Assembly (NCBI GenBank): GCA_041690135.1
Contig: JAWLHY010000008.1
Span: 1 to 64,000, forward strand
DNA from: Armatimonadota bacterium
GTDB taxonomy: Bacteria > Armatimonadota > SYMT01
Direction of reading: 5' to 3'
Length of the DNA: 64,000 nt
Position numbers and translations under genes: made by a program. Under the pieces are notes generated by a model. The model saw nothing but the letters and a program-made list of their open reading frames with translations. It did not search any database and had not been told where the DNA came from. Of the stretch, positions 44,667-53,229 are shown piece after piece. How positions within the stretch are numbered: position 1 is the first letter of the stretch; each line of letters begins with the position of its first letter.

Positions 44667-45311
44667 ATGGAAGCGACGTCCGCACAGACGCTGCCCCGGC
44701 TGAACGAGCCGGCTCCCGATTTCAGCGCTACCAGCACCCAGGGCCCGATTTCACTGTCCCAGTACAAGGGAAAGTGGATCGTGCTCTTCTCGCACCCGGC
44801 CGACTTCACCCCGGTCTGTACCACCGAGTTCATCGAGTTCGCCCGCAACTACGAAGAGTTCGAGAAGCGCAATGTCCAGCTGATCGGTCTCAGCATCGAT
44901 AGCATCTACGCCCACATCGCGTGGGTCCGCAACATCGAACAGAACTTCGGCGTCGACATCAAGTTCCCGGTCATCGCCGACCTGGACATGAAAGTCGCCC
45001 AGCTCTACGGCATGATCCACCCGGGCGCGGCCAGCACCGCTACCGTCCGTTGCGTCTTCATCATCGATGACAAGGGCATCGTCCGTGCGATGGTCTACTA
45101 CCCGCTGACCAATGGGCGCAACATCGACGAGATCATTCGCCTGATCGACGCGCTGCAGACCCACGAGGCGCAGAAGGTCGCCACCCCCGCCAACTGGCGG
45201 CCCGGCGACAAGGTCATCGTCCCGCCGCCGCTGACCCAGGAAGGCGCCGAGGAGCGCTGCAAGGCCGACTACGAGATCACGGACTGGTACTTCGCCAAGA
45301 AGCAGATCTAG
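44667..45311 (+). CDS. Peroxiredoxin (Prx6 type)
   Basis: FSHPADFTPVCTTEF, YYPLTNGRNIDE, TPANW. Confidence 0.95.
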   Translation: MEATSAQTLPRLNEPAPDFSATSTQGPISLSQYKGKWIVLFSHPADFTPVCTTEFIEFARNYEEFEKRNVQLIGLSIDSIYAHIAWVRNIEQNFGVDIKFPVIADLDMKVAQLYGMIHPGAASTATVRCVFIIDDKGIVRAMVYYPLTNGRNIDEIIRLIDALQTHEAQKVATPANWRPGDKVIVPPPLTQEGAEERCKADYEITDWYFAKKQI

Positions 45312-47272: not shown

Positions 47273-47481
47273 CGGTAGTGGGGCCGACCTACCGCAAAGT
47301 AGACGAGGGCCCCGACGCAGTTCAAGAAAAGAATGACCAGCACCCAGATGAGCTTGGTTCCCGCGCGATAGTAACGGTCTTCCGGAACGCGGATGGCATC
47401 CACCAGTGCCGCCAGCGTGATAATCCAGGGGATCAACCCGGCGCCGATCAAGAGCAACTCAGCAGGACCCAGCTCGAACAT
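47266..47481 (-). CDS. Small membrane protein, PLDc N-terminal domain
   Basis: ALVDA...KLIWVLVILFLNCVGALVYFAVGR. Confidence 0.85.
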   Translation of the reverse strand: MFELGPAELLLIGAGLIPWIITLAALVDAIRVPEDRYYRAGTKLIWVLVILFLNCVGALVYFAVGRPHYRH

Positions 47482-47598
47482 GCGAAAGAACCCTCTCATG
47501 GGATGTGGTCACCCCGAAGTGGCGCCATTCCACTTAACGGTGTATGTTGCCTCTGGTTGCGCCTCGGTCACCGCACCGCAGGGGAAGTGAGTTCCTTG

Positions 47599-48051
47599 CT
47601 ATGAGTTTTTCACCCCTCCCATCTCCAAGCCAGCCGCGAAGCCGCGGAGAAAGGCTCGGCTCGTCTCCTTTTCGACACCGGGGACGCGCACCAGAACGCT
47701 TTCGATCGGCACTCCCTGCGTGAGGAGGTATGCGGCGTAGACCGTACCGGCCCGCCCTCCGCCGCCCATTCAGTGGATGAGCACAGCCGGGTCCAATTCG
47801 GAGCGGCGCCGGATGAGGTCCAGGGTGGCGCCCAACCCCTCGGGCAGTGGGGAAGCAAAGTCGCGGATGAGGAACGGGTGCCACTCGATGCCGCGCTCCT
47901 CCATCCGCGCCTGGACTTCCGGGCTGACCGGATGCAGCGAGACGACGGCGCGGATGCCCTGATCGTGCAGCCAGTCGACCGTCTCCGGGGTCTCGGGGAC
48001 CCCGGAGAGCGCGACGCGGCCTTCTTCTTCGAAGCGGAAGTTCTTTACCAT
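47599..48051 (-). CDS. Dual-specificity/tyrosine phosphatase with in-frame UGA at the catalytic Cys (probable selenoprotein, 150 aa)
   Basis: GIRAVVSL, RDFASP acid loop, then VLIH-TGA-MGGGGRAGTVYAAYL, which is the HCX5R P-loop; frame stays open to TAG 47599-47601. Confidence 0.85.
47732..47769 (-). promoter_or_regulatory. Putative bacterial SECIS element
   Basis: After the UGA: stem GGCG-GGCCG / CGGUC-(UA)-CGCC closing a GUA loop that starts 23 nt downstream. Confidence 0.65.
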
Positions 48052-49014
48052 TTAAGGACGGATGCCGGGGACATTGAGCTTGATGCGGTAGAGCCCGGAG
48101 CGGGCGGTCATGTAGAGGGTTTTGCCATCGGCATCGCCCCAATGGCAATTGGCGGGCACTTCCTCGGGGCGGATCAGGCCGAGGTACTTGCCGGTAGGGC
48201 TGAGGACCCACACCCCGCCAGGGCCGGTGCCGTAGACGTTCCCTTCCTTATCGACCTTCATTCCATCCGGTAGGCCGTCTTGCTTGCTCTGGGTGACATC
48301 GTAAAAGACCTTACCCGCGCCCAGAGTGCCGTCGGCCTTCACCGGGTAGGACATCCAGATCTTGCGGGCGGCGTCGGAATTGGCCACGTAGAGCGTCTTC
48401 TCGTCCGGTGAGAAGGCCAGACCGTTCGGGCGGGTAAGCTCTTTCGTGAGGAGGGTCAGCTTACCGTCCTTGTACCGGTAGACGCCGTTGAAGGGGAGCT
48501 CCTTGGCCGGATCCTGGTCCTGCTTCGGCAGGCCGTAGGGAGGATCGGTGAAGTACATCGCCCCGTCGGACTTGAAGATGACGTCGTTCGGGCTGTTCAG
48601 CCGCTTGCCTTCGTAGCGGTCCACGATCGTGACGTAGGACCCGTCCTTCTCCCGTCGGGAGACGCGCCGTCCGGAGTGCTCGCAGCAGATGAGGCGACCC
48701 TGGGGGTCCAGCGTGTTGCCGTTCGTGTTCTGGGAAGGGTTTCGGAAGTCGGAGACCTTGCCGGCTTTCGGGTCCCACTTGCGAAGGACGTTGTTCGGGA
48801 TGTCGCTGAAGACAAGGAATCCCTCGTGCATCCAGACGGGGCCTTCCGTGAACTTGAAGCCTCCGGCCAGTTTCTCGATCTTCGCTCCTTCCGGAACGAT
48901 CTTCTTGAACTCGGGTGCGTTGAGGTCGATTCCTTCGCCGGAGGCGCCCTCCACCAGGGGGGCGCAGAGGCAGGCGGCAGTCAAGCTAAGACAAAGGAGT
49001 GCGTTGTGCTTCAT
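48052..49014 (-). CDS. Secreted SMP-30/gluconolactonase family protein
   Basis: FTEGPVW, FSDIP, LNSPND, FTDPPYG, PNGLAFSPD, PDGMKVD; signal peptide MKHNALL. Confidence 0.93.
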   Translation of the reverse strand: MKHNALLCLSLTAACLCAPLVEGASGEGIDLNAPEFKKIVPEGAKIEKLAGGFKFTEGPVWMHEGFLVFSDIPNNVLRKWDPKAGKVSDFRNPSQNTNGNTLDPQGRLICCEHSGRRVSRREKDGSYVTIVDRYEGKRLNSPNDVIFKSDGAMYFTDPPYGLPKQDQDPAKELPFNGVYRYKDGKLTLLTKELTRPNGLAFSPDEKTLYVANSDAARKIWMSYPVKADGTLGAGKVFYDVTQSKQDGLPDGMKVDKEGNVYGTGPGGVWVLSPTGKYLGLIRPEEVPANCHWGDADGKTLYMTARSGLYRIKLNVPGIRP

Positions 49015-49213
49015 GGTGAGTCCGGGAGACGGCGTCGGTTCACCGGATCGTCGCGCTGGAGCGTCGAAACCGAGGTAGGAGAGCGAGACGTAGGAGGCGG
49101 TAGCTCGCAGGCGCGAAGTGCCGGCTCCCCCGCTCTCCCTCAGATTGGGGGTGGGGGAAGCCGGCTCCTCCTGTTGAAATGCGCCGTGTTGGGGCGTGAG
49201 CGGCAAACGGCGC

Positions 49214-49726
49214 TCAGGCTGCGATCGCCTCGGAGTAATGGTGGAGGCCGACGGGGTGGGCACGGTGCATCGCCAACTCTGCCCGTCCGAACTCGCCGTC
49301 GGTGTGGACGAAGACCAGGGTGCGCCCCTCTTTGAGCTCCCGATTGTATTCCTCCGCGGCCCGGCGCGGGAGTCCGAGCCCCACCAGAACTCCCGCAAAC
49401 CCTCCCACCGAGGCTCCCCCAACCGCACCCACCATGGCTGCTGCGAGCGGCCCTGCGGCTATCACGATGCCAGCGCCGGGCAGTGTCAGTGCTGTGAGGC
49501 CGGCCACCCATCCAGCCACGCCGCCGAGGATTCCACCCGCGGCCACGCCCGTGGCTCCTCCCTTGATAACATTCACCCCCAGTTCCTCGGCGTAGTTCTC
49601 GGCTTCGCGAGGGTCCGGGGCGAAGATGCTGATGTTGCGGGACGTGAAACCCGCTTCACGCAGGTTCTCCACCGCCTGCACGGCCTTGCCATGCGAATCG
49701 AAGACTCCTACCACCGTCTGTGCCAT
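49214..49726 (-). CDS. General stress protein (YflT-like with Gly zipper)
   Basis: VVGVFDS...AVENL...IS, GGILGG...PGAG...AAGPLAA, Y...LKEG; AGGAGG RBS. Confidence 0.85.
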   Translation of the reverse strand: MAQTVVGVFDSHGKAVQAVENLREAGFTSRNISIFAPDPREAENYAEELGVNVIKGGATGVAAGGILGGVAGWVAGLTALTLPGAGIVIAAGPLAAAMVGAVGGASVGGFAGVLVGLGLPRRAAEEYNRELKEGRTLVFVHTDGEFGRAELAMHRAHPVGLHHYSEAIAA

Positions 49727-49921: not shown

Positions 49922-50509
49922 CTACTTCAGGGCCTGGGCAGCGGGGCTCAGGAGCACGTAGAGGATGGGAATGGCGGCTCCGAGGAGGACCAGGATTCCG
50001 CCGCGGCCGGCGAGGCCGTTCTTGCCCGGCAGCATGAACATCCCGGAGAGAGCCAGGAACAACAGTCCGATCGCGTAGAGATCGGCGACGACCGTCCAGG
50101 CCTTCTTGCCCCGGTTCAGGTGGAGCCAGTTCGCGGCCCGGAAGAAGGGTCGCGGCTTCTGGCCTTCTTCCACGACACGCCCAGACTCGGGGTTCACCGT
50201 GAGGGTGCGGTTCTCCATCTGAATCCGGAGCTCGTCCGGGGCGTAGCGTTCCACCTGCTTCGGCGCACCTTCGATGCGAAGTTGGTTCAGCACCTCGCGC
50301 GCGGCGTTGGCGTCGTCCGGCGGCAGGGTACCCTGGAGCGTGTGGGTTTGGCGATAGCGGACGAAGTTGGAGTCCCAGTCCGCGACGTGGTTTACCGCCA
50401 GACCGGAGAGGGCATAGACCACAGTGAGACCCACGGCAAGGTAACCACAGTCTCGATGCAAGGAGCGGACCAGCGGACGCCAGCTCACACGGCGGCGCTG
50501 TTCAGGCAT
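49922..50509 (-). CDS. PepSY-associated TM helix family protein
   Basis: RSLHRDCGY...YALSGLAVNH, NWLHLN, LSG.FM; three TM segments. Confidence 0.85.
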   Translation of the reverse strand: MPEQRRRVSWRPLVRSLHRDCGYLAVGLTVVYALSGLAVNHVADWDSNFVRYRQTHTLQGTLPPDDANAAREVLNQLRIEGAPKQVERYAPDELRIQMENRTLTVNPESGRVVEEGQKPRPFFRAANWLHLNRGKKAWTVVADLYAIGLLFLALSGMFMLPGKNGLAGRGGILVLLGAAIPILYVLLSPAAQALK

Positions 50510-51245
50510 ACCGCTCCTCCAGCCAGGGGTCCGCATGGTTGTGATACCCGCGCACTTCCCAGTAGCCCGGTTCGTCGTGGCTCACGAAGCGGATGCCGGT
50601 AAGCCACTTCGCACTCTTCCAGAAGTAGAGGTCCGGAACGAGGGAGCGCACTGGGGGACCGTTCTCTAGGGGCAGCGGTTCACCGTTCAGGCGGTAAGCG
50701 ACGAGGCAATTGGGGGCGATGGCTTCTTTCAGCGGCACGTTGGCCGTGTAGCCGTGCGCGGCCTCGAAGATCACGTGGGCCGCGGAATCTTTCACGCCGG
50801 CCAACTCCGCCAGGTGGGCGATCCGCACGCCCTTCCACTCCGCATCGAAAACGGTCCATCCCGTCACGCAGTGAACGTCGGCCAGTTGCTCTGTTTGCGG
50901 GAGTGCCAGCAACTCGCGGTAATCGAGCTCCAGAGGGTTCCGCACTTCTCCGTAGACGCGCAGGCGGAAGTTGGCGGGATCAGGATCACCCTGTTGGCCG
51001 CCCATCGGGCGCAGCGCCTCGATCAGGCGTTGATTCGGGGGAAGCCGGGTTCGGCCGTCCGCACGAACCGCATCCAGGGCGGCCTGCTGCTTCTCCGGGG
51101 CCGCCGGGCGATAGAGGATGCCGCCAATTGCTACCACCGCACCTGCCGCGGCCAGGCCCAATATCGCACGCCGATCCATTCGCCGGCCGGCGGGGTGTTC
51201 CGCGGGAAGTTGTTCTGGCGGTCTCTGCTCGTCGTGTCCGCGCAT
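50502..51245 (-). CDS. Molybdopterin-dependent oxidoreductase (sulfite oxidase/MsrP-like)
   Basis: DVHCVTGW, GYTANVPL, NGPPVR, YFWKSAKWL, PGYWE.RGYH..ADPW.EERY; DRRAILG Tat-like motif. Confidence 0.9.
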   Translation of the reverse strand: MRGHDEQRPPEQLPAEHPAGRRMDRRAILGLAAAGAVVAIGGILYRPAAPEKQQAALDAVRADGRTRLPPNQRLIEALRPMGGQQGDPDPANFRLRVYGEVRNPLELDYRELLALPQTEQLADVHCVTGWTVFDAEWKGVRIAHLAELAGVKDSAAHVIFEAAHGYTANVPLKEAIAPNCLVAYRLNGEPLPLENGPPVRSLVPDLYFWKSAKWLTGIRFVSHDEPGYWEVRGYHNHADPWLEERYA

Positions 51246-51297: not shown

Positions 51298-53229
51298 ATG
51301 CCTCCTGTGAGCCCCAAACTTTCCACCGTCAGCCAGCACTTCATCATCGGTACCGCGGGTCACGTGGACCATGGTAAGACGGCCCTCATCCGCGCGCTAA
51401 CCGGCGCCGAAACCGACCGCCTCCGGGAAGAACAGGAGCGGGGAATGTCCATCGACCTGGGTTTCGCCGACTTCAAGCTGCCCAGTGGTCGTCACGCGGG
51501 CGTGATCGATGTGCCCGGTCACGAGCGGTTCCTCAAGAACATGCTGGCGGGAGCCGGCGGCATCGACCTGGTGCTACTGGTGATCGCCGCGGACGAAGGG
51601 GTGATGCCGCAGACGCGGGAGCACCTCGACATCCTGAACATCCTGCAGACGCGCCGGGGCGTGGTGGCTATCACGAAGGCGGATCTGGTGGATGAGGAAT
51701 GGCTGGAGCTGGTTCAGGAAGATATCCGCGGGGTTCTCAAGGGCACTTTCCTGGCTCACGCGCCGATGGTCCCGGTTTCCTCCATCACCGGCGCCGGGAT
51801 CAGCGACCTGCGGAATCTGCTGGACCAGATGGCGGAAGACGTGCCGACCCGCACTATCGTGGGGCCGTGGCGGCTGCCGATCGACCGGGTATTTACCATC
51901 CGCGGCTTCGGCACGGTGGTGACCGGGACGCTGATTGCCGGCGTGGCCCGCGTGGGGGATCGGGTGGAAGTCCTGCCGCGGCGAGTGGAGAGCCGCATCC
52001 GCAGCTTGCAGGTGCACGGGGCATCGGTCGACTTCGCCGAGGCGGGCACGCGGGTTGCCGTGAACCTGGCCGGCCTGGAGGTCGAGGACATCGAGCGCGG
52101 CGATGTCGCTTCCCCGCCGGGGGTGTACACCGCCACCCAGGCGCTGGATGCGCGGCTTGACGTGCTGGAGAGCTGCCCGCGCGAGGTGCGAAACCGGACG
52201 CGCGTGCGCGTCTATCTGGGGACGGCGGAAGTTCTCGCCCGCCTCAACCTGCTGGACGCCGAGGTTCTGGAGCCGGGCCAGAGCGGCCTGGTGCAACTCC
52301 GGCTGGAAACCCCTACTGTGGCCGCCAAGGGCGACCGCTACGTGCTGCGGTTCTACTCGCCGATGGACACCATCGGCGGGGGAACGATCATTGATCCCAG
52401 CCCGGTGCGCCACAAGCGGTTCGATGCGGCCGTTCTCGCCAACATGGCGGTGAAGGAGAAGGGTACACCCGAGGAGTTGGTGGCGGAGACGGTTCAGCGC
52501 TCCAATCTCACCCCGATCGCCCCCCAGGCCATCGGGCAGGCGCTGGGCATGCCGCTGGAAGAGGTGCGGAGGCTGGTCGGGGAACTGAAAGAGCAGGGCG
52601 AACTGGTGGGGCTGGAGGGAGAGACGGTGGTCCACCGCCACCGGCTGGACGCGGCGGGCCACCAGGTGGTGAGCACCCTCTCCGAGTATCATGCCGCGCA
52701 ACCCATGCGGACCGGAATGAGCCGCGAAGAGCTGCGCAGCCGCCTATCCCGGCAGATGGACGCCAAGGGGTTCAACCTGATCCTGGGCCGGCTGGAAGCG
52801 GAAGGCAAGATCGTGTCCGAAGGGGGGCGCGTCCGGCTCGCCAGCCACAGCCCGCAGTTCACCCCCGAACAGCAGCGGATCGCGGAGGCCTTCGAGCAGG
52901 GCCTGCTCGCCGATCCGTTCAATGCCCCGTTCTACGAGGATCTCCGGTCCGCTGCCGGCCTCCCCGCGAAGCCGGCGCAGGAAGTGTGGGAAGCCCTGAT
53001 CGACAACGGCCTCGTGGTCCGCATCACTGCGGATGTGTTCCTTCACCGGAAGGCGGTGGACCAGGCCATCGCACGCGTTCGCGAGTACCTGGCCGAGAAC
53101 AAGACGATCACCGCGGCCCAGTTCCGCGACCTGCTGGGCACCTCCCGTAAGTACGCCGTACCCCTGATGGAGTACCTCGATGCGCAGCGGGTGACGCGGC
53201 GACTAGGAGACGCAAGGGAGCTGTTCTAG
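51298..53229 (+). CDS. selB: Selenocysteine-specific elongation factor
   Basis: [35 protein letters not shown], and C-terminal winged helix [14 protein letters not shown]. Confidence 0.97.

Follow-up and report, generated by a model that had tools for sequence, protein, structure and literature searches.

A small gene in a 64,000-nt stretch of DNA from an Armatimonadota bacterium (GTDB lineage SYMT01; assembly GCA_041690135.1, contig JAWLHY010000008.1, positions 1 to 64,000; hereafter the window) carries an in-frame UGA codon at the position where related protein tyrosine phosphatases (PTPs) have their nucleophilic Cys. Comparison with its relatives indicates that this is very probably a real selenoprotein gene, in which selenocysteine (Sec, U) would replace the catalytic Cys. 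It appears to represent a new family of selenoproteins with a known fold, that of the PTPs. To all appearances the family has not been reported, and its members are systematically mis-annotated as fragments of 93 residues. The gene had been singled out from the letters of the window and a list of their open reading frames (ORFs) by a model that ran no database searches (the original prediction). Here we describe the computational follow-up.

An in-frame UGA at the nucleophile of a phosphatase P-loop

The gene lies on the minus strand, a point clarified here. With TGA translated as U, it encodes 150 residues (MVKNFRF...VLIH-U-MGGGGRAGTVYAAYL...GVKNS*) and Sec falls at position 94. Its features are as follows.

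47599–48051, minus strand: coding sequence of the putative selenoprotein phosphatase, 150 codons including Sec94, TAG stop at 47599–47601 (translation with TGA as U, Pfam, AlphaFold, Foldseek)
47770–47772, minus strand: UGA codon 94, predicted to encode Sec where the H-C-x5-R P-loop has its catalytic Cys (alignment with TGC/TGT and TGA orthologues)
47743–47775, minus strand: P-loop H93-U94-M-G-G-G-G-R100-A-G-T103 (35-sequence alignment; aligned with HCALGFGRTGT of DUSP23)
47860–47862, minus strand: Asp64, candidate general acid, in the loop I-R-D-F (present in 90% or more of the 35 aligned sequences; aligned with the 'IPDF' loop of DUSP23)

The claim that the TGA sits on the nucleophile of a PTP/dual-specificity phosphatase P-loop was borne out by the minus-strand translation, which reads V-L-I-H-U-M-G-G-G-G-R-A-G-T-V-Y-A-A-Y-L around codon 94. 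As had also been proposed, the frame stays open for 56 codons past the TGA before a TAG stop, and the acid loop I-R-D-F-A-S-P, with D64, is intact. Compared with the signature (H/V)-C-x5-R-(S/T), the P-loop H-U-M-G-G-G-G-R-A-G-T matches in spacing, His, Gly and Arg, with Sec for Cys and Ala for Ser/Thr. The protein contains no Cys among its 150 residues. The sequence statements of the original prediction were thus confirmed.

TGA and Cys forms share the same codon position

Orthologues were present in eight of 61 genomes of the phylum. When 401 of its genomes were searched with a profile, the same eight scored above 200 bits, and the next best match reached 92.8 bits. Comparing the aligned codon had been suggested as a check, and both states were found: TGA in two of the eight (G000, the window's own genome, and G007, from another family) and TGC or TGT in the other six.

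A protein database of 5.8 billion clusters yielded 64 relatives. More than half (36/64) are ORFs of 91–96 residues ending in ...L[ILVF]H, their last residue lying just before the nucleophile; of the other 28, 27 have HCxGGxGR and one has a frameshift. Searching the 50%-identity representatives exhaustively contributed a further four, also truncated and more divergent, together with two ORFs of 55–57 residues that begin MGGGGRAGT and are back halves called as genes in their own right. In a metagenome scan, TGA occupied the catalytic codon at eight of 11 loci (L042, L043, L045, L046, L047, L048, L049 and L051), with the frame running on to the normal C-terminus; one locus (L044) has Cys and two contigs end before the site. 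Locus L051 has a one-base frameshift upstream of its TGA, at about 400–410, followed by H-U-L-G-G-G-G-R-A-G-T and the normal C-terminus; the frameshift is probably an assembly or sequencing error.

Among the nine distinct DNA-verified forms with a stop at the nucleophile codon, that stop is TGA in all nine, and never TAA or TAG. Since independent assemblies have TGA at the same codon and 36 of 64 relatives end just before it, the TGA of the window is not there by chance.

Selection is equal on both sides of the UGA

Purifying selection downstream of the TGA, a further check put forward with the original prediction, was found to equal that upstream: the mean ratio of nonsynonymous to synonymous polymorphism (pN/pS) was 0.55 upstream and 0.56 downstream (21 pairs from seven full-length TGA forms, the partial L042 left out). 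TGA and Cys forms also have in common the C-terminal motif VEKExQ[RK]AFLxGFAAG.

These data bear on whether the UGA is a true stop, leaving either a pseudogene or a non-catalytic N-terminal protein of 93 residues, possibly plus a 56-residue product started at an ATG after the TGA. Public gene callers give just such pieces (93-aa ORFs and 55–57-aa MGGGG fragments), and in the window an ATG directly adjoins the TGA. However, the codon following the TGA is ATG, CTG, CAG, GCG or GCA depending on the form, so no restart codon is conserved. Furthermore, the downstream frame is open to the same C-terminus under equal selection, the stop is TGA in 9/9 forms, and a conserved hairpin, found in TGA forms only, follows it (see below). 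Nor would pseudogene decay be expected to break the gene exactly at its nucleophile in dozens of lineages. We consider a true stop highly unlikely.

In a tree of 63 N-terminal halves (93 residues), 35 of the 36 truncated forms fell into one group of 40 sequences (Shimodaira–Hasegawa-like approximate likelihood ratio test, 92), inside which five Cys forms are nested. At least six state changes are needed on this tree, of which well-supported branches force only one, as its resolution is poor. The pattern fits one main origin of a putative Sec form followed by some reversions or switches. A metagenomic sequence of 93 aa, P0060, is a truncated form within the tight Cys clade P0010–P0015; here Cys may have changed to Sec recently, or the stop may be a simple nonsense mutation or an error.

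A hairpin specific to TGA forms follows the UGA

Insertion of Sec in bacteria is directed by a selenocysteine insertion sequence (SECIS), and two candidate elements were delineated.

47739–47753, minus strand: SECIS upper stem-loop GGGCCG-GUA-CGGUCU, positions 20–34 counted from the U of UGA, apical loop at 47745–47747
47732–47765, minus strand: hairpin as possibly extended by a lower stem, 8–12/37–41 (87.5% of cells paired in TGA forms)

Over the 48 nt that follow the UGA, eight distinct TGA forms can be aligned gap-free, and all have an invariant GCCGGTACGG at positions 22–31. The helix 20–25/29–34 is paired in 48 of 48 cells across these eight forms, and its changes comprise one compensatory exchange (G-C to C-G, in L049) and three of G-U to G-C. 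A ninth TGA form, L051, has the same helix with the loop GGA for GUA. None of seven Cys forms has the full helix (one to four of six positions paired). The Arg CGG and Gly GGT codons that build the stem occur in both genomic TGA forms and in none of the six genomic Cys forms; the codon after the P-loop Arg encodes Ala or Ser in Cys orthologues and, in TGA forms, is a GCC that is part of the stem. The proteins of the window and G007 are 53% identical, and at identical residues they use the same codon in 10 of 11 cases within the 13 codons after the UGA, compared with 34 of 65 in the rest of the gene. The lower stem was rejected as a Sec-specific element: Cys forms pair three to five of its five positions, and it therefore follows from the Gly/Ala codons.

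The bacterial SECIS (bSECIS) model sets criteria for loop, stem, spacing and energy, the last being −7.5 kcal/mol (PMC13188914, section 5 and Fig. 2 legend). In loop, stem and spacing all nine TGA forms fit it, with a 3-nt loop (GUA, or GGA in L051), a 6-bp stem and 22-nt spacing. Like the bSECIS consensus of the E. coli fdhF type, the hairpin lies in the coding region just after the UGA and has a loop of G followed by U (once by G). Unlike the consensus, it is very short and GC-rich, and its upper stem on its own is less stable than the energy criterion requires in five of eight sequences. An Rfam search around the TGA returned only chance-level matches (E > 4), with no family matching the hairpin. 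The hairpin was rejected as a genome-wide repeat: scanning the genome for a TGA with the hairpin core 14–24 nt further on gave six sites, and only two of these have open frames on both sides, the phosphatase-fold gene, and an Arg/Pro-rich frame on contig C9 that looks non-coding.

The genome encodes the Sec machinery and uses TGA as a stop

The window itself contains selB, 3.2 kb away as the original prediction had noted (measured from the start of selB to the start codon of the phosphatase-fold gene).

51298–53229, plus strand: selB, selenocysteine-specific elongation factor (Pfam GTP_EFTU, SelB-wing_2, SelB-wing_3, Beta-barrel_SelB)

The remaining components, whose presence had been named as a check, were all found in G000 above cut-offs: selA (566.6 bits), selD (369.6 bits) and tRNA-Sec (67.2 bits, cut-off 47). 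They lie together on contig C1 at 1149453–1152359 (locus L053, 1150800–1151900). The selD gene is itself an established selenoprotein gene, with its own TGA in a C-G-G-U motif and a hairpin, GGCGCAG-GUG-CUGCGUC, 33 nt after that UGA, whose G-U-G triloop is closed by G-C. As a control from the same genome, this hairpin resembles that of the phosphatase-fold gene, both having a triloop of the G-U-R type.

TGA ends four of the 10 neighbouring genes and several orthologues of the phosphatase-fold gene. Because TGA is thus an ordinary stop, a changed genetic code is not the explanation. Readthrough of the UGA by other means, for instance a near-cognate tRNA that inserts Cys or Trp or a code altered locally, is opposed by the same terminations, by the full set of Sec genes and by a hairpin that fits the SelB-type SECIS model; we found nothing in its favour and regard it as extremely unlikely.

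The protein is modelled as a small VHZ/DUSP23–SsoPTP-like phosphatase

The read-through protein matched two Pfam families above their cut-offs of 27 bits: PTP-SAK (PF22784; 56.1 bits, residues 5–120, across U94) and Tc-R-P (PF22785; 47 bits). DSPc (PF00782; 23.4 vs 33.5) and Y_phosphatase (PF00102; 16.7 vs 20.9) stayed below theirs, and no NCBIfam model reached its cut-off in a scan of this protein. A profile built from 35 family members and searched against the PDB identified 25xa (1.5e-22) and human DUSP23/VHZ (4.6e-14), followed by ShufPTP, Tk-PTP and SsoPTP. An AlphaFold model built on the family alignment had a predicted local distance difference test score (pLDDT) of 92.9 and a predicted template modelling score (pTM) of 0.88. 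Its top Foldseek matches in the PDB all have the PTP fold: VHZ (template modelling score, TM, 0.81; E 1.3e-9), and also Cdc14B, Tk-PTP, TpbA, ShufPTP and SsoPTP. Taken together, Pfam, the PDB profile and AlphaFold assign the protein a predicted small VHZ/DUSP23–SsoPTP-like phosphatase fold.

Within the 35-sequence alignment (A4), H93, C/U94, G96, G97, G99 and R100 are invariant. Like VHZ/DUSP23, SsoPTP, Tk-PTP and the engineered ShufPTP, the family has about 150 residues and the same alpha/beta fold (Foldseek TM 0.76–0.81). The profile alignment to VHZ and the archaeal PTPs spans about 125 residues and includes a common H-C-x5-R P-loop followed by G-T, as well as an Asp 30 residues before the nucleophile in an 'x-D-F' loop, which stands opposite the 'IPDF' loop of DUSP23. 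Asp64 is presumably the general acid, as in VHZ and SsoPTP.

The family differs from VHZ and the archaeal PTPs in several respects. Its nucleophile codon is UGA in most members of one subgroup, its P-loop reads G-G-G-G-R-A/S, and N4, W27, S38, H40 and F134 are invariant. It also has an extra conserved C-terminal helix (VEKExQRAFLxGFAAG) outside the Pfam phosphatase models, and the sequence identity of the read-through protein to VHZ is only 26%. G000 also encodes a distant paralogue (about 32% identity) with the Cys P-loop V-H-C-K-G-G-Q-G-R-A-G (contig C12, 229065–229415, plus strand; locus L002).

Gene neighbourhood

Directly upstream of the phosphatase-fold gene lies a member of the SGL family, which is likely its operon partner.

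48052–49428, minus strand: SMP-30/gluconolactonase/LRE-like gene (Pfam SGL, 8.5e-48); the junction is TAA-ATG, its stop abutting the phosphatase ATG

An SGL gene is also directly upstream at nine of 18 other orthologue loci. The SGL-family protein of the window has 458 residues, with the Pfam SGL match confined to residues 193–442 and the first ~190 residues free of any Pfam match. At two TGA loci that lack an SGL neighbour, L013 (1155–2063) and L049 (421–1323), the upstream gene is ftsY-like (SRP54_N plus SRP54 GTPase). At L047 (539–1468), the upstream ORF, delimited from stop to stop, contains a nitroreductase domain and after it only the C-terminal portion of SRP54, a combination that may be an artefact of ORF cutting.

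Two further observations concern nearby redox genes. A 1-Cys peroxiredoxin gene (AhpC-TSA plus 1-cysPrx_C; 44667–45311, plus strand) lies 2.3 kb from the phosphatase-fold gene in the window, and at the G007 locus (L013, 2766–3497, minus strand) a 1-Cys peroxiredoxin gene is directly downstream and convergent. Their proximity in two lineages may be a coincidence or a redox link. Adjoining selB and divergent from it, a molybdopterin-binding Oxidored_molyb gene overlaps one for a PepSY-TM-like membrane protein (49922–51245, minus strand); we take this pair to resemble an MsrP/MsrQ-type system.

A proposed mechanism for a Sec-dependent phosphatase

By the standard bacterial mechanism, SelB carrying Sec-tRNA(Sec) would bind the GC-rich hairpin (6-bp stem, G-U-A loop) that starts 19 nt after the UGA, and this binding would recode UGA94 as Sec. 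The product is probably a small cytoplasmic enzyme of the VHZ/DUSP23–SsoPTP type with a Sec nucleophile, most likely hydrolysing phosphate monoesters, and its substrate would probably be phosphotyrosine on proteins. In the proposed cycle, the U94 selenolate, held in a P-loop whose Arg100 binds phosphate, would attack the phosphorus while Asp64, as general acid, protonates the leaving group. A covalent Se-phosphoryl enzyme would form and then be hydrolysed by water. That the protein works as a phosphatase through such a Se–P intermediate seems to us reasonably likely.

What Se would offer over S may be resistance to irreversible oxidative inactivation, or easier reversal of oxidation, and a leaving group that departs more easily in step two. 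A lower pKa is unlikely to be the advantage, since the cysteines of phosphatases are thiolates in any case. In the crystal of a related PTP (entry 9e9m) the catalytic Cys is a cyclic sulfenamide; PTP catalytic sites therefore oxidise readily. The absence of any other Cys from the protein argues against an internal selenosulfide redox cycle.

Weighing the evidence

Several observations weigh against a Sec-dependent phosphatase. The SECIS-like hairpin of the original prediction was not upheld by folding the window sequence alone, as the fold of the 76 nt after the UGA is not significant (z = 0.15; 107 of 200 shuffles as good), and the hairpin stands by comparison with the other TGA forms; a single-sequence fold says nothing for or against in DNA of 65% GC. 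The upper stem alone ranges from −6.6 to −9.4 kcal/mol, and five of eight sequences miss −7.5 kcal/mol without flanking pairs. This threshold is reached by three of eight with the upper stem alone and by seven of eight with the lower stem added; the exception, L043, has −6.3 kcal/mol with the lower stem, and an upper stem of 8 bp gives it −9.4 kcal/mol. Few covarying changes were counted, and 63 of 500 column shuffles reached that number. In G007, an 88% complete genome, selA is present, no tRNA-Sec exceeded the cut-off, and selD was found only as fragments at contig ends.

Read data leave the site itself uncovered: contigs from four read runs span 47547–47752 (X1), 47465–47615 (X2), 47300–47446 (X3) and 47778–47987 (X4, an RNA library whose contig has 22 differences), with a gap from 47752 to 47778 that includes every base of 47770–47772. 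This would leave room for a sequencing or assembly error that turned TGC or TGT into TGA. However, TGA occupies this codon in nine different DNA sequences that come from separate assemblies, and the window carries the hairpin of the TGA forms, including the synonymous CGG and GGT codons that occur in no Cys form. Because independent assemblies carry the same TGA, an error in the window is very unlikely indeed, and we give it next to no credence.

On the enzymatic side, the residue after Arg100 is Ala and not the Ser/Thr of the classical C-x5-R-(S/T), a trait common to many Cys forms; it was discarded as a Sec-specific feature, as 19 of 27 Cys forms also have Ala. The neighbourhood was likewise discarded as a clue to the substrate, since SGL or ftsY is found depending on the locus and there is no consistent partner. 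Both the selenium content and the phosphatase activity are deduced from sequence.

Finally, Sec is used overwhelmingly in redox enzymes, and a genuine PTP-fold selenoprotein might perform redox or chalcogen/oxyanion chemistry in place of phosphate-ester hydrolysis, for example arsenate/selenate-type reduction, persulfide or selenium transfer, or peroxide sensing, like the rhodanese-like and arsenate-reductase selenoproteins. The selenoproteins catalogued so far almost all take part in redox reactions or handle chalcogens or metals (PMC13188914, Table 1). Some relatives of the window protein are named 'DUF442 family' by the Joint Genome Institute (JGI), a DUF442 structure (3gxg/3gxh) is among the fold matches (TM 0.72–0.73), and the 1-Cys peroxiredoxin gene is nearby in two lineages. 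Against this, the best matches in both sequence and structure are proven phosphotyrosine phosphatases (VHZ/DUSP23, Tk-PTP and SsoPTP), and the acid-loop Asp and P-loop Arg are conserved. With no Cys in the window protein and no second conserved Cys in the family, there is no internal resolving thiol for a reductase cycle. Moreover, Cys and Sec interchange among close orthologues, as expected of chemistry that Cys also performs. We therefore consider non-phosphatase chemistry unlikely and favour phosphate monoester hydrolysis.

Relation to known selenoproteins and significance

The Cdc25 phosphatases share their fold with rhodanese. In the rhodanese-like selenoproteins (PF00581, UxxS/UxxG; PMC13188914, Table 1), Sec is likewise predicted in place of the active-site Cys of an anion-binding loop. 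Unlike the window protein, which has no PF00581 match, they have another fold and carry out sulfur/selenium transfer via a persulfide. Arsenate-reductase selenoproteins have an ArsC/Spx-type fold and need a thiol redox partner. The attack of their Sec on a tetrahedral oxyanion (TIGR00014, UxxS; NF041106, UxxC; PMC13188914, Table 1) is, among catalogued reactions, the one closest to phosphate chemistry. The window protein, in contrast, has a dual-specificity-phosphatase fold, no UxxC or UxxS and no other Cys. The motifs of the glutamine-amidotransferase-type and methylated-DNA-protein-cysteine methyltransferase selenoproteins suggest that U is the nucleophile. Both are predicted precedents in which Sec seems to replace a non-redox nucleophilic Cys that passes through a covalent intermediate (PMC13188914); in contrast to phosphoryl transfer, theirs is acyl or alkyl transfer on unrelated folds. 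In kind, these three groups come closest to the present family among catalogued selenoproteins.

No phosphatase is among the 119 prokaryotic selenoprotein families in Table 1 of a 2026 review (PMC13188914), whose main text contains 'phosphatase', 'PTP', 'dual specificity' and the relevant Pfam accessions zero times. The word 'phosphatase' likewise occurs zero times in the main texts of BSepDB and deep-Sep, whose supplementary family tables might list the family, and in those of SelCysML and the 'Eight unexpected selenoprotein families' preprint. The only phosphatase mentioned in the Global Ocean Sampling (GOS) paper is a PP2C domain fused to a peroxiredoxin selenoprotein. A phrase search of the literature, subscription-only papers being outside its scope, found no selenocysteine- or Sec-containing phosphatase and no combination of CX5R, selenocysteine and UGA. 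If our reading is right, dozens of database entries for 93-residue 'hypothetical proteins' are the front halves of selenoproteins, with no NCBIfam model to rescue them.

As textbook enzymes with a non-redox nucleophilic Cys, PTPs have been negative controls in the identification of redox cysteines through Sec/Cys pairs (PMC2673044). A natural, widespread Sec PTP would contradict the rule that such a pair marks a redox-active Cys. We lean slightly towards the view that these soil bacteria have a natural phosphatase that works via a covalent phospho-selenocysteine, and that it was selected because it remains a working phosphotyrosine phosphatase in oxidising surroundings, where Cys phosphatases are irreversibly inactivated. 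We know of no description of a Se–P enzyme intermediate in nature, and the protein could offer phosphatase enzymology a natural one for 77Se/31P spectroscopy. With close orthologues of both kinds at hand, Sec and Cys could be compared directly in a non-redox enzyme, as nucleophiles, as leaving groups and in how well they resist over-oxidation.

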